DNA from: an uncultured Acidobacteriota bacterium
GTDB taxonomy: Bacteria > Acidobacteriota > UBA6911 > RPQK01 > JAPXNP01
DNA length: 64,000 bases
Direction of reading: 5' to 3'
Assembly: GCA_963777605.1 (NCBI GenBank)
Contig: CAVZRV010000015.1
Location: 32,001-96,000, forward strand
The notes under the pieces were generated by a model. That model saw only the letters and a program-made list of their open reading frames with translations. It was not told the DNA's origin and did not search any database. Shown one piece after another: positions 21,275-25,190 of the stretch. Numbering within the stretch: the first letter of the stretch is position 1; each line of letters starts with the position of its first letter. Both the position numbers and the translations under genes were made by a program.

Positions 21275-23011
21275 ATGAAGTCGTTCCCGTTGTTTAGGCT
21301 GGTGGCCGCGGTTGTGGCGATCTCGCTGGTTCACATCTTCTGTTCGTCGGGGCCACCTTCCAGGTCCTTTCTGATCTCACTCCCGGAAGGTGTCTCAGAC
21401 AAACCTCTCGATGGTCGGCTCCTGTTGATGATCTCGACCGACGATTCGGCCGAGCCCCGGTTTCAAATCGGCGACGGCATTGAGACGCAACAGATCTTCG
21501 GAGTGGATGTGGAGGGGATGACCGCAGGTCAACCCGTAGCCATCGACGAAACAGTATTTGGGTACCCCCTGCCAGGACTCTCCGAGGTTCAGCCCGGCGA
21601 GTACACCGTTCAGGCACTGCTCCACGTCTATGAGACTTTTCATCGAGCCGACGGACATACCGTGAAACTCCCGATGGACCGCGGTGAGGGCCAGCACTGG
21701 AACATCGCTCCCGGCAACCTTTACAGCTCACCGAAGCGGATCAGGATCGGCCAGGGCGACCAGCAGACCGAACTAGTACTGAGCGAGGTCATTCCTCCTA
21801 TTCCCGACCCGAAAGACACCCACTACATCCGTCACGTCAAACTGCAGAGCGACCTGCTGTCCGCGTTTTGGGGCCGCCCGATGTTCCTGGGGGCCACCGT
21901 CCTCCTGCCCGAGGGCTTCGACGAACATCCCGATGCGCACTACCCTCTGGTCATCAACCACGGGCATTTCTCCCGGACGATCAGTGACTTCCGGGAAGAG
22001 CCCCCCGATCCCAACCTGAAACCCGAGTACAGCGAGCGGTTCAAGATCGAAGGCTACAACCGGATCGTGCAGGAGTATGCATACCAGTTCTACAAGGATT
22101 GGACGGGCCCCGATTTTCCAAGGGTGATCCTGATCGAAATCCAGCACGCCAACCCCTACTACGACGATTCCTATGCCGTAAACTCTGCCAACCTGGGCCC
22201 GTACGGGGATGCCATTACCCACGAACTCATTCCCTACATCGAGGAGAAGTTTCGGGGAATCGGCGAAGGCTGGGCACGGTTTCTCTACGGCGGCTCAACG
22301 GGAGGATGGGAGGCCCTGGCCGCACAAATCTTCTATCCCGCCGATTACAACGGCTGCTGGGCGGCGTGTCCTGATCCCATCGACTTTCGAGCCTACACCG
22401 TCGTGAACATCTACGAGGATTCAAACGCCTACTACGAAATCGGCCCCTGGAAAAAGGTCCCCCGACCAGGAATGAGAAACTACCTCGGGCAGATCGGCGC
22501 AACGCTGGAGCAGATGAATCACCGAGAGCTGGTTCAAGGAAGCCGTGGACGATCGGGAGACCAGTGGGATATTTGGGAGGCGGTCTACAGTCCGGTCGAC
22601 AGGGACGGCTATCCGCTTCGACTCTGGGACAAGATGACTGGTCAGATCAACCACGAAGTCGCCAGGTACTGGCAGGAGAATTACGACCTTCGCTACATCC
22701 TGGAACGGGACTGGGACATCCTGGGGCCCCAGCTGGAAGGCAAGATCCACATCTACTGCGGGGACATGGACACCTACTATCTCAACGACGCCGTCTACCT
22801 GATGGAGGACTTCCTCGAAAAGACCACCAATCCCTACTACGCGGGTGAGGTGGACTACGGGGACCGGGCCGAGCACTGCTGGAACGGGGATCACACCCGG
22901 CCGAATGCGATCTCCCGGCTCCGCTACCACCAGATGTACATCCCGAAAATCGCAGAAAGGATCCTCAAGTCGGCGCCTCCCGGGGCCGACCTCAAGAGTT
23001 GGAGTTATTAG
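21275..23011 (+). CDS. exported alpha/beta-hydrolase (esterase-like) protein
   Basis: Signal peptide, GGSTGG nucleophile elbow, GAGGAGG RBS. Confidence 0.75.
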   Translation: MKSFPLFRLVAAVVAISLVHIFCSSGPPSRSFLISLPEGVSDKPLDGRLLLMISTDDSAEPRFQIGDGIETQQIFGVDVEGMTAGQPVAIDETVFGYPLPGLSEVQPGEYTVQALLHVYETFHRADGHTVKLPMDRGEGQHWNIAPGNLYSSPKRIRIGQGDQQTELVLSEVIPPIPDPKDTHYIRHVKLQSDLLSAFWGRPMFLGATVLLPEGFDEHPDAHYPLVINHGHFSRTISDFREEPPDPNLKPEYSERFKIEGYNRIVQEYAYQFYKDWTGPDFPRVILIEIQHANPYYDDSYAVNSANLGPYGDAITHELIPYIEEKFRGIGEGWARFLYGGSTGGWEALAAQIFYPADYNGCWAACPDPIDFRAYTVVNIYEDSNAYYEIGPWKKVPRPGMRNYLGQIGATLEQMNHRELVQGSRGRSGDQWDIWEAVYSPVDRDGYPLRLWDKMTGQINHEVARYWQENYDLRYILERDWDILGPQLEGKIHIYCGDMDTYYLNDAVYLMEDFLEKTTNPYYAGEVDYGDRAEHCWNGDHTRPNAISRLRYHQMYIPKIAERILKSAPPGADLKSWSY

Positions 23012-23157
23012 CGGAACCTTTCGGTTCGCGCACTCCAAATGAATCCTGCAGCCATGCCGGACTCGAGAGGAAACCCGCGGCGGTAGGCATCCTCGGATTT
23101 GGGCAGGCCAAAATGCTCTAACGAACCGGTGCAAAAGTGCTGTGTTAGGATGACCAC

Positions 23158-23382
23158 ATGAGCGATCGCGTCATCATTTACGGAAAACCTGGTTGACCCC
23201 ACACCGAGGCCGCCCGTGAGGAACTTGGCCGACAACACCCTGCCGTCGAGTACGTGGACGTCAAGCGCGACCCGGAAGGGTTGGAGCGCATGTTGCGGGA
23301 GAACGGCGGCATCCGAAAAGTGCCGACGATCCTGCTGGACGGGAATGTGAAGATCGGGTACGGGGGGACCTGAGGAGTCTGA
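23158..23382 (+). CDS. glutaredoxin-like selenoprotein with two predicted Sec residues (UXX-star type), 74 aa
   Basis: MSDRVIIYGKPG-U-PHTEAAREELGRQHPAVEYVDVKRDPEGLERMLRENGGIRKVPTILLDGNVKIGYGGT-U-GV*. TGA at 23194 aligns to the Grx catalytic Cys, TGA at 23371 gives U-x-x-stop, VPTI cis-Pro motif, AGGA RBS, SECIS-like hairpins after both UGAs. Absent from the ORF track. Confidence 0.85.
23204..23228 (+). promoter_or_regulatory. candidate SECIS hairpin for the first UGA
   Basis: CCGAG/CTTGG lower stem and a CC-GTGA-GG apical loop; loop G follows 19 nt after the UGA; the upper stem is weak. Confidence 0.45.
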
Positions 23383-23407
23383 TAACCGCCGGCGGTCGGC
23401 CGGCAGA
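23378..23407 (+). promoter_or_regulatory. candidate SECIS hairpin for the second UGA
   Basis: GCCGGC-GGTCG-GCCGGC stem-loop with a G-starting GGTC loop 20 nt after the UGA, resembling the E. coli fdhF SECIS loop. Confidence 0.6.
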
Positions 23408-23447
23408 ATCGTGCGACTCGAATTGATCTTCGCCTGCTTTTCCGCTT

Positions 23448-24743
23448 TTACCGGCTGCGGAGAAAGCGGGCGAGCAGAATGACGGCGGAGACGTTTACGA
23501 GAACCGTTCCGGCGTTGAGCAGGTCGCCCAAACTCCAAAGCAACTCCGTTTCGAAGAACCCGAAGAGCACCGCCGCGGAGAACGTCCAGCGGTACGCCTT
23601 CCGAACCTTGGTTCCCCAAATGTAGGCGAAGCACTGCTCTCCGTAGAAGCACCACGCAACGAGCGTGGAATACCCGAACAGGAGGGAGCAGACGAAAACC
23701 AGAATTGCGCCAGCGGATCCGAAGTGGCTCTCGAAAGCGGCGCTGGTCAGCGCCGTACTGGTCGCCCCGCTCAACCAGGTTCCCGTCGACAAAATCACAA
23801 GGGCTGTCAGGGTTCCCACCGCGGTGTCGATGACGACCCCGAACATCCCTATCAGAGCCAGCTTCCTCGGGTCATCTGCGCGGGCGGTACTGTACATGAT
23901 CGGGGCACTCCCGGTTCCGGCTTCGTTGGAGTAGAATCCCCGAGCCACGCCATAGCGCATCGCCATCAAGACCCCCGCGCCGGCAAATCCTCCCGTTGCG
24001 CTCGCCGGCGCGAACGCGTTTTCCAGAACGAGTGCCAGCGCCTTCGGAAGTTGATCGAGAGTCAGGACCAGGATCACCGACGACATCACGAGGTAGAACA
24101 GAACCATGGCGGGAGTGATCCGCTCAAGGGCGCCGACGACACTCCTCAACCCACCGATGGTGGCGACCCAGGTTAGTGCGGCTACCGCCACGCAGGCCCA
24201 GACGGCCGGCTTCCCCGACAGCGCCTGAAACGCGATCGCAATCGAGTTGGACTGGATCGTGGCCGTCGCCATCAAGGTCTTGGTTCCCATGGCGAGGGCA
24301 AACAGGATCGCCAGCCAGCGCATCCCCAATACCGACTCGATGTAGTACATCGGGCCGCCCGAGTAGGTCCCGTCTGCCGTCTGGCGCCGGCAGGAGACCG
24401 CCAGGTAGGTTTCGGCATAGACAATGATCATCGCGATCAGGGCAGCCGCCCAGAACCAGAACACGGCTCCCGGTCCACCTATGGCAATGGCGGTGGCCAC
24501 TCCCGCCAGGTTGCCGTTGCCGATGAGTCCCCCCAGGGCCGAAAACAGAGACTGCAGGGGCGAGATGTTCCCTTCCCCACTTCCGGCACGATAATTGATC
24601 GTCAGGCGAGCCGACGTGACGAGCTGTCGAAACTGGAGGCCCCGCAGGCGCCAGGTCAGGTAGAGACCGACCGCGGAAAGAAAAAGCAGCATCGGCGGGC
24701 CCCAGAGCCAGCCGGCCGCCGCACGTATCAATTCACCAACCAT
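23448..24743 (-). CDS. sodium:alanine/glycine symporter (AGCS family)
   Basis: G.GNLAGVATAI..GGPGAVFW, GGPMYYI, GVARG.YSNEAG.GSAP. Confidence 0.93.
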   Translation of the reverse strand: MVGELIRAAAGWLWGPPMLLFLSAVGLYLTWRLRGLQFRQLVTSARLTINYRAGSGEGNISPLQSLFSALGGLIGNGNLAGVATAIAIGGPGAVFWFWAAALIAMIIVYAETYLAVSCRRQTADGTYSGGPMYYIESVLGMRWLAILFALAMGTKTLMATATIQSNSIAIAFQALSGKPAVWACVAVAALTWVATIGGLRSVVGALERITPAMVLFYLVMSSVILVLTLDQLPKALALVLENAFAPASATGGFAGAGVLMAMRYGVARGFYSNEAGTGSAPIMYSTARADDPRKLALIGMFGVVIDTAVGTLTALVILSTGTWLSGATSTALTSAAFESHFGSAGAILVFVCSLLFGYSTLVAWCFYGEQCFAYIWGTKVRKAYRWTFSAAVLFGFFETELLWSLGDLLNAGTVLVNVSAVILLARFLRSR

Positions 24744-24839
24744 CTAGTCTGCCCATCTGATGCCCGACCCGACGGCGGGTCACCGGTGTGCAGACGGGTA
24801 TATCATCAAGGAATAAATGAAAGGAAGGCGGAATTGCAG

Positions 24840-25190
24840 TTGAAGGACTCGGGGCGGCTCCTCGGATTACTCGGGCTGGCGAGAAGAGCCGGGAAACTCA
24901 CGCTTGGAACTTTAGCCACCCGGCAGGCGATCCGATCCCGGAAAGTCTGCCTCCTGCTAATGGCGCAGGATCTCTCAGAATCGTCCGCGACCAAGGCGAG
25001 TCAACTCGCCCGAGCCATGAAGATTCCGGTCTTCAGGCCCTGTACCAAAGCTGATTTGAGCGGGGCGCTCGGTCGTGAAAACCTGGGTGTCGTCGGTGTC
25101 ACCGATCCCAATCTCGCCGAATCGATCATGGGAATCATCGACCCGGCTGGGGCACCCAAGGGTCTTCAGCCGGGCGATCAGGAGTCCTGA
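24840..25190 (+). CDS. L7Ae/L30e/S12e family RNA-binding protein (YlxQ-like)
   Basis: LLGLLGLARRAGKL..G, LLLMAQDLS, KADLSGALGR....VVGVTD.NLA; TTG start after AAGGAAGG. Confidence 0.85.
   Translation: MKDSGRLLGLLGLARRAGKLTLGTLATRQAIRSRKVCLLLMAQDLSESSATKASQLARAMKIPVFRPCTKADLSGALGRENLGVVGVTDPNLAESIMGIIDPAGAPKGLQPGDQES

Follow-up and report, generated by a model that had tools for sequence, protein, structure and literature searches.

Two in-frame UGA codons, each with a predicted SECIS of its own, in the gene for a 74-residue glutaredoxin-fold protein of an uncultured Acidobacteriota bacterium

Among the small glutaredoxin-like proteins of bacteria is a family with two selenocysteine (Sec, U) residues, which a 2026 review (PMC13188914) lists as ‘Distant Grx-like protein 1’ with the motif UxxT and 2 Sec. 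The review credits it to Zhang & Gladyshev 2008, calls the functions uncharacterised, and cites Haft & Tolstoy 2025 (mSystems) for the UXX-star families. A full-text literature search for ‘UXX-star’ returned this review only, and the accessible parts of Zhang & Gladyshev 2008 make no mention of a two-Sec ‘distant Grx-like’ family, which the supplements of that paper may hold. Here we describe a gene of this kind in a 64,000-nucleotide stretch of DNA from an uncultured Acidobacteriota bacterium (GenBank assembly GCA_963777605.1, contig CAVZRV010000015.1, positions 32,001 to 96,000 of the forward strand), which we call the window and along which all positions are counted. Comparative evidence makes it almost certain that a glutaredoxin-fold selenoprotein of 74 residues, belonging to the NCBIfam family NF041114, is encoded by a functional gene at 23158-23382, both UGAs of which would be decoded by SelB and tRNA-Sec, each through its own selenocysteine insertion sequence (SECIS). 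A first-pass annotation, made from the DNA letters alone, had presented this protein as hidden. Standard gene calls do miss it, but an NCBI curated model names it, and its novelty was overrated, since the review already lists the family with UxxT and 2 Sec. That annotation read the gene correctly, but the family had already been catalogued, and the window protein is an ordinary member of it.

The gene starts with an ATG at 23158 on the forward strand and runs for 74 codons, with UGA at codon 13 (23194) and codon 72 (23371). Its translation opens with M-S-D-R-V-I-I-Y-G-K-P-G-U13-P-H-T, closes with I-G-Y-G-G-T-U72-G-V and contains no Cys (features are collected in Table 1). The ATG, both TGAs, the Cys-free frame and the TGA-TAA end had all been read correctly in the first pass. 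Reading U as C, we obtained a score of 99.2 bits on NF041114; the cut-off of this model, named ‘UXX-star selenoprotein family 1’, is 72, and residues 5-74 align end to end on model positions 1-70 of 70. A six-frame search of the genome with the same model recovered the window gene at 84.5 bits with 2 TGAs. The protein also exceeded the cut-off of 66 bits on NF041212, ‘Uxx-star family glutaredoxin-like (seleno)protein’, where it reached 82.6, and its score on the Pfam Glutaredoxin model was 42.4 bits. Scores on the models of other redoxins stayed below their cut-offs, both for classical glutaredoxin 3 (TIGR02181, 32.5 bits against 90) and for the NrdH and YruB-type proteins (TIGR02194, 21.4 bits against 85.75; TIGR02196, 34.2 against 88.55). 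At the glutaredoxin active-site position the protein carries U13-P-H-T16, which is a UxxT motif and not a dithiol CxxC, Thr occupying the position of the second Cys. The chain ends four residues past G70, and U72-G-V followed by TGA TAA gives it the UXX-star ending.

The AlphaFold2 model, for which 10 family sequences were used, reached a mean predicted local distance difference test score (pLDDT) of 90.6, with strands and helices in the order of a thioredoxin fold. Its best Foldseek matches were small redoxins and glutaredoxins (3zit/3zij, 7c10 and 4tr1), at template modelling (TM) scores of 0.72-0.77. When a 10-member family profile was compared with proteins of solved structure, the nearest was the glutaredoxin 7c12/7c10 (E 1.1e-7), matched over residues 1-68 only. 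The NF041114 and Pfam scores and the predicted thioredoxin fold together bear out the glutaredoxin-like fold proposed in the first pass. In an alignment of 10 order-level sequences, which are 54-64% identical to the window protein, residues G12, U13, P14, T16, G69, G70, T71, U72 and V74 are invariant.

Table 1. Positions of the predicted selenoprotein gene and its associated elements in the window
Feature	Position	Strand	Details and basis
Coding sequence (CDS), UXX-star family 1 selenoprotein	23158..23382	+	74 codons + TGA stop; Sec at codons 13 and 72
UGA read as Sec13, at the start of the active-site motif U-P-H-T	23194..23196	+	TGA/TGY column in family loci
UGA read as Sec72, third from the C-terminus (U-G-V-stop)	23371..23373	+	TGA in 74/74 fetched family loci
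True stop TGA (23380-23382), then in-frame TAA (23383-23385)	23380..23385	+	sequence
TG-T-TAGGAT, extended -10-like element	23143..23151	+	sequence; ends 6 nt 5′ of the ATG
SECIS 1 (predicted), inside the coding region	23208..23230	+	5-bp outer stem, C-C/G-G inner stem, GUGA loop, -8.3 kcal/mol
SECIS 2 (predicted), 3′ untranslated region	23388..23404	+	6-bp GCCGGC/GCCGGC stem, loop GGUCG, -14.0 kcal/mol

Both UGAs are conserved far beyond this genome. Six-frame searching with NF041114 covered 61 genomes from the family and order to which the window belongs and found 11 above the cut-off, a count that includes the window's own genome and the unpublished genome G018; all 11 carry two in-frame TGAs. 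An even sample of 401 genomes from the phylum yielded 58 above the cut-off, every one with at least one TGA: 49 have two, nine have one and none has zero. When the unpublished two-TGA genomes (G018, G202 and G083) are left out, 46 two-TGA and nine one-TGA genomes remain among 398. The tail TGA, at position 72, is present in all 74 family loci that were fetched. In addition, parts of the gene are covered, at 85-100% identity, by contigs from four metagenome runs (four studies), and no difference is listed for any TGA triplet within their reach; these are assembled contigs rather than raw reads, and the window itself may come from one of the four runs. In the most divergent of these contigs, 17 of the 26 differences within the CDS fall at third codon positions.

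A search for selA, selB, selC and selD in the genome of origin (6.73 Mb, estimated completeness 96.7%) found the full set. The profile scores were 528 bits for selA, 354 for selB and 363 for selD, while tRNA-Sec scored 70.5 bits with anticodon TCA and was called as tRNA-SeC by ARAGORN; all four lie above their curated cut-offs. These genes sit on contigs C10, C29 and C7. As an observation on the machinery itself, selD (G000:C7:931111-932034) has one in-frame TGA, so that SelD of this genome is probably a selenoprotein too; the tRNA-Sec gene (C7:942802-942896) lies about 11 kb from it on the same contig.

The first UGA is followed, within the coding region, by a hairpin with an outer stem at 23208-23212/23226-23230, an inner stem at 23214-23215/23220-23221 and a GUGA loop at 23216-23219. 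Its stem begins 11 nt and its apical loop 19 nt after UGA 23194. Bacterial SECIS (bSECIS) elements are limited to loops of 3-9 nt with G in the first two bases, upper stems of 4-16 bp, distances of 16-37 nt from the UGA and energies of -7.5 kcal/mol or lower (PMC13188914, section 5). The hairpin lies within these limits, that for the stem being reached only if the 2-bp and 5-bp stems, which have an internal loop between them, are summed. Since single-sequence folds are no better than shuffles, the case that this hairpin is more than chance rests on its relatives, including those with Cys in place of Sec13. A pattern scan of one genome per species, covering 185,579 species with two peptide patterns written with Cys, gave 36 confirmed relatives. 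Two of these are ordinary C-P-Y-C glutaredoxins without the tail; the other 34 are members with Cys13 and a tail TGA. Because these 34 carry Cys there, position 13 shows classic Sec/Cys alternation. For the comparison of the two states, two loci from unpublished genomes were left out, leaving 72 family loci with TGA (29) or TGY for Cys (43) at codon 13. The states also mix within a single taxonomic family of the phylum sample (f64), where three genomes have one TGA and two have two.

The Sec13 and Cys13 groups differ at synonymous sites where the hairpin lies. The Ala codon at +6 is GCC in 28/29 Sec13 loci versus 16/43 Cys13 loci, the Arg codon at +7 is CGT in 24/28 versus 2/35, and the motif CCCG[U/G]GAGG is found in 24/29 versus 1/43. 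Third-position identity at codons +6 to +8 is 0.97, 0.83 and 0.90 in the Sec13 group versus 0.53, 0.53 and 0.49 in the Cys13 group; the remaining synonymous sites vary freely in both groups alike. A divergent metagenome contig, with 30 differences in all, has zero between 23191 and 23241. Judged from these alignments, the frozen synonymous sites reflect a constraint on the RNA that goes with the UGA, which is what a SECIS would produce. By parsimony, a tree of the 72 proteins, built with positions 13 and 72 masked and the two unpublished-genome rows omitted, has six Sec/Cys changes, of which well-supported branches force only one, the tree being poorly resolved for switch counting. By the origin labels of its named loci, the tree sets the same-phylum loci among Acidobacteriota records, which makes Acidobacteriota the probable phylum.

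The second hairpin lies only 5 nt past the stop TGA, with its stem at 23388-23393/23399-23404 and its GGUCG loop at 23394-23398. The stem begins 14 nt and the loop 20 nt after UGA 23371, so that the G-starting loops 19 and 20 nt past the two UGAs, noted in the first pass, are spaced as described there. With 6 bp, a GGUCG loop, a distance of 20 nt and -14.0 kcal/mol, this hairpin falls within the bSECIS limits. It has counterparts throughout the family: in 71/72 loci a hairpin of at least 5 bp starts at a distance of 10-20 nt, counted from the first base of that locus's tail UGA, the 72 tail-hairpin segments being 71 distinct sequences. Stems of at least 6 bp are present in 62/72 real segments, as against 25/72 in an interval 80 nt downstream, 28/72 in upstream coding sequence and 37% of shuffles. 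If GU in the loop is also required, the counts become 52/72 real, 4/72 downstream and 12/72 upstream, with 6.7% of shuffles. Sequences were anchored on the loop, because the MAFFT alignment (A2) was inconsistent with the structure. Among 15 hairpins with a GGUC loop, compensatory changes occur at 6/6 pairs and 97.6% of cells are paired, as high a value being reached in 0/500 shuffles, although the set was selected by hairpin detection, which favours structure. No T-run follows the SECIS 2 stem at the locus, a search for terminator-like sites gave none, and an Rfam scan of 23100-23460 (E up to 10) gave two chance-level matches and no SECIS family.

The proposal that both UGAs encode Sec is well supported by these data: both codons are conserved, SECIS 1 tracks the state of codon 13, the 3′ hairpin covaries and the Sec machinery is present. 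SelB and tRNA-Sec would decode UGA 23194 through the in-frame SECIS at 23208-23230, and UGA 23371 through the SECIS at 23388-23404, just past the stop codon. A number of results nevertheless weigh against decoding of this kind. Taken alone, neither hairpin is significant against shuffled sequence (z = 0.31 for hairpin 1; z = -1.85 for hairpin 2, where 8/200 shuffles fold as well). The mean fold energy after codon 13 is -10.1 kcal/mol in Sec13 versus -9.5 in Cys13 loci (one-sided p = 0.16). RNAalifold on the MAFFT alignment of SECIS 1 recovers just the 2 invariant pairs of the inner stem, the register of the outer stem varying from one sequence to another, and the two groups are not independent samples, because all Sec13 loci come from one phylum. 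A covariance model of SECIS 2, built from the 15 loci with the window excluded, finds its best match in the 64-kb window at 23386-23406, with 17.8 bits but only E = 0.1 and a near-equal second match at 23737. The Sec genes, moreover, are all on contigs other than the window's, in an assembly of 53 contigs with an estimated contamination of 5.7%. Finally, a search of sequencing runs found no RNA run containing the stretch; the DNA runs listed have small shares, at most 0.13.

The weak single-sequence statistics would fit an alternative in which the UGAs are not Sec codons but real stops (in which case the gene is dead or encodes 12 residues), errors of sequencing, or codons for another residue under an altered code; some public calls do translate relatives with TGA as W. 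We consider this highly improbable. Both TGAs are found in the 49 two-TGA genomes of the phylum sample, with the protein conserved past each of them, and wherever the four metagenome contigs cover a TGA triplet, no difference is listed. Position 13 alternates between TGA and TGY only. The gene also uses TGA as its own terminator, other genes in the window are long open frames under table 11, and the genome has the full selA/B/C/D set. We accordingly retain the reading of a gene with two Sec codons.

A search of a public set of 5.8 billion proteins returned only nine relatives (P0001-P0009), of which five have every TGA translated as W and four end at the tail UGA; the latter are 68-88 aa long, and three are named ‘glutaredoxin 3’. 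As foreseen in the first pass, standard gene callers miss the protein, public sets holding only tail-truncated or TGA-as-W forms. Public calls for family 1 are in this sense an annotation trap, and the TGA-as-W forms could suggest a false genetic code.

The two Sec positions behave differently in evolution. A search for Cys homologues at both positions had been proposed in the first pass; they are found at position 13 (43/72 loci), but at position 72 no Cys form was found in family 1, either among the fetched loci or in a G-G-T-C pattern scan of the 185,579 species, nor among the relatives in the 5.8-billion-protein set. From its distribution, the tail Sec appears obligate in family 1. To look at the wider subfamily, six sub-cutoff matches from the phylum were read and five of them scanned against NCBIfam. 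Four of the five (L104, L106, L107 and L109) combine C-P-[Y/H]-T with a tail G-C-x-x(-x-x)-stop, scoring 65.9-79 bits on NF041212, the lowest just under its cut-off. The fifth, L108, has C-P-Y-C together with a tail Sec and scores 87.6 bits on that model. Since C-P-[Y/H]-T occurs with a tail Cys in four of the five, the tail Cys or Sec seems to travel with a motif that has no resolving Cys of its own.

Some monothiol glutaredoxins use a Cys just past the GG motif for resolution, and animal thioredoxin reductase has a C-terminal Sec tail. The window protein may likewise be a minimal, ‘one-nucleophile’ redoxin in which Sec13 is resolved by Sec72, a possibility for and against which we find the evidence about equally balanced. 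Because Thr16 is invariant at the corresponding position, there is no second active-site Cys, and we infer a tail-resolved redoxin because motifs that have lost their own resolving Cys regularly come with a tail Cys or Sec. In such a cycle, Sec13, at the start of helix 1 in U-P-H-T, would attack the oxidised substrate; with Thr replacing the second Cys of CxxC, Sec72 on the glycine-rich tail (G-Y-G-G-T-U-G-V) would resolve the intermediate. The product would be an intramolecular Sec13-Sec72 diselenide, or a selenenylsulfide in Cys13 relatives, and a cellular reductase system would then re-reduce the oxidised protein. An intramolecular diselenide between these two residues is plausible, and we lean modestly towards the gene reading and the redoxin mechanism taken together. 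More tentatively, and with a probability that we put clearly below even, the tail selenol may be the indispensable group, because Sec72 is Cys in none of the family-1 loci covered and position 13 switches even within one taxonomic family. The protein would then be a self-contained swinging-arm mini-redoxin, with a motif-tail diselenide cycle in its two-Sec form. We know of no bacterial protein with experimentally shown motif-to-C-terminal-tail diselenide cycling; if this is what the protein does, the very low potential of a motif-tail diselenide would imply an unusual substrate or reductase.

Against a redox function of this type stand the lack of any conserved redox partner, either in the window or recurrent in the 72 loci, and the structural comparison, where no solved protein aligned past residue 68 in the profile search; since the 7c12/7c10 match spans residues 1-68 only, the Sec tail is without a solved counterpart. 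The review, too, suggests metal binding or unknown substrates for the Sec of UXX-star proteins (PMC13188914). The protein might then be a chelator or carrier in which the two selenolates, instead of cycling as a redox pair, capture soft metals or metalloids (Hg, As or Cu), or selenium species, so as to detoxify or deliver them. Many newly found bacterial selenoproteins are indeed tied to Hg or As resistance (PMC13188914), and a tail Sec that is never Cys in family 1 would fit the affinity of selenium for soft metals. The fold, however, with its invariant cis-Pro and GG elements, is of the thiol-disulfide oxidoreductase type, and no gene for metal resistance or transport or for selenium metabolism adjoins the gene here or recurs in the 72 loci, which makes a chelator unlikely in our view.

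The glycine-rich tail, having no counterpart in solved glutaredoxins, could also serve as an arm between molecules. Sec72 would then react with a partner enzyme, or with the active site of another copy of the protein in a head-to-tail dimer, and would shuttle electrons in the manner of the C-terminal Sec tail of animal thioredoxin reductase. A dedicated partner domain is suggested by the NF045501 model, in which a GUXX-star domain is fused to a C_GCAxxG_C_C-like ‘HUGP’ domain. The only HUGP-like match in the window's own genome (G000:C35:177257-177673, or L102:1366-1905; 54 bits) is, by contrast, a Cys-type protein of the C_GCAxxG_C_C family (Pfam, 89.4 bits) with an H-C-A-Q motif, encoded on another contig. 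Read from the sequence alone, its N-terminus seems to be a signal peptide, and the in-frame TGA of its gene looks like a true stop. As it is unlinked to the selenoprotein gene, this candidate was rejected, and it counts as a weak lead to a partner. An arm acting between molecules strikes us as quite improbable, and resolution of Sec13 by Sec72 within one chain remains the mechanism that we carry forward.

The gene is a solitary one in the window, flanked by an esterase-like gene and a convergent Na:Ala symporter gene. Its recurrent neighbours elsewhere are lineage-specific and include ThyX-like, MFS, thioesterase, MBL-fold, Gfo/Idh/MocA and molybdopterin oxidoreductase proteins, the Gfo/Idh/MocA oxidoreductase being found downstream in 3/11 order-level loci. 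The largest neighbour cluster comprises a protein of about 500 aa in 14/72 loci, two scanned representatives of which match ThyX (Thy1). This ThyX-like neighbour is found at many Cys13 loci (L042, L047, L054, L055, L057 and others), largely in Acidobacteriota, and is absent from the window; its adjacency may be lineage synteny or a hint of nucleotide metabolism. Further along the window, between the symporter gene and an epimerase gene, lies an open reading frame (ORF) of 134 aa (24786-25190, + strand) that matches Pfam Ribosomal_L7Ae with 34.5 bits.

Upstream of the gene, the AGGA that had been taken for a ribosome-binding site is present, at 23147-23150, but its role as such is doubtful. It sits within TG-T-TAGGAT and may belong to an extended -10 element (TGnTAGGAT) instead. 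In 8/10 order-level loci (L024-L033) a TAnnnT is found 6-9 nt 5′ of the start, in six of them with TGn, and a Shine-Dalgarno-like word is absent from most of those with the upstream TAnnnT. Over the 72 family loci, the upstream TAnnnT is present in 24 and a Shine-Dalgarno-like word in 36; a sigma-70 scan that requires a -35 box gave no match at the locus. Because TAnnnT recurs before the start and most such loci are without a Shine-Dalgarno-like word, the sequence suggests a possible extended -10 promoter with a leaderless mRNA at this gene. On the opposite strand, an ORF of 215 aa (23008-23655, - strand) spans the whole selenoprotein gene. It is probably spurious, such frames being common in G+C-rich DNA, and the BLAST clustering of antisense ORFs from relatives reflects nothing more than conservation of the sense gene.

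The additions made here to what was catalogued for the family are modest: the contrast between Sec13 and Cys13 loci at SECIS 1, the apparently obligate tail Sec, the faulty public gene calls and a possible leaderless promoter. The gene is predicted to pack two independent recoding events into 225 bases, with one SECIS in frame and one past the stop. Since the in-frame SECIS motif and the frozen sites track UGA or UGY at codon 13, the family offers a clean natural control for SECIS prediction. Given the apparently obligate tail Sec, family 1 is also a compact candidate for studies of bacterial diselenides and selenenylsulfides.

SelL, a eukaryotic selenoprotein reportedly described by Shchedrina et al. 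2007, is said to form a diselenide in a UxxU motif. It provides a precedent for a thioredoxin-fold protein in which two Sec form a natural diselenide, although its Sec pair lies within one UxxU motif, whereas the residues of the window protein are 59 apart and their bond is a predicted one. Among solved structures, the closest matches are 7c10/7c12 (‘cGrx1’, active site C-P-H-C) and the thioredoxin-like BC3987 (3zij), with TM scores of 0.76-0.77. The window protein and 7c10/7c12 share the same C/U-P-H opening of helix 1, but 7c10/7c12 and 3zij have a second active-site Cys and a C-terminal helix and lack the Sec tail, leaving residues 69-74 unaligned. The all-Cys members of NF041212 from the same phylum share the monothiol-type motif and have a tail Cys at the matching place, but contain no Sec, end in G-W-Q-G-R-G-C... 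and reach 54-61 bits on NF041114, below its cut-off. Closer still are the Cys13 members of family 1 (C-P-Y-T...G-G-T-U-G-V-stop), which match the window protein in length, in fold motifs, in the tail Sec and in the 3′ SECIS, and which pass the same cut-off, as seen for nine of the 58 phylum genomes and for the 34 loci of the species scan. They differ in the Cys at their active site and in the near-absence of the SECIS 1 motif, found in one of the 43, and their expected oxidised form is a selenenylsulfide rather than a diselenide. With the two-Sec members of NF041114, finally, the window protein shares a full-length match, U-x-x-T, a Sec third from the C-terminus, a length of about 74 residues and both Sec. 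It has U-P-H-T where most have U-P-Y-T (His being present in 2/29 Sec13 forms), and its gene stops with TGA-TAA rather than TAG; in nothing of substance does the window copy differ from these proteins.

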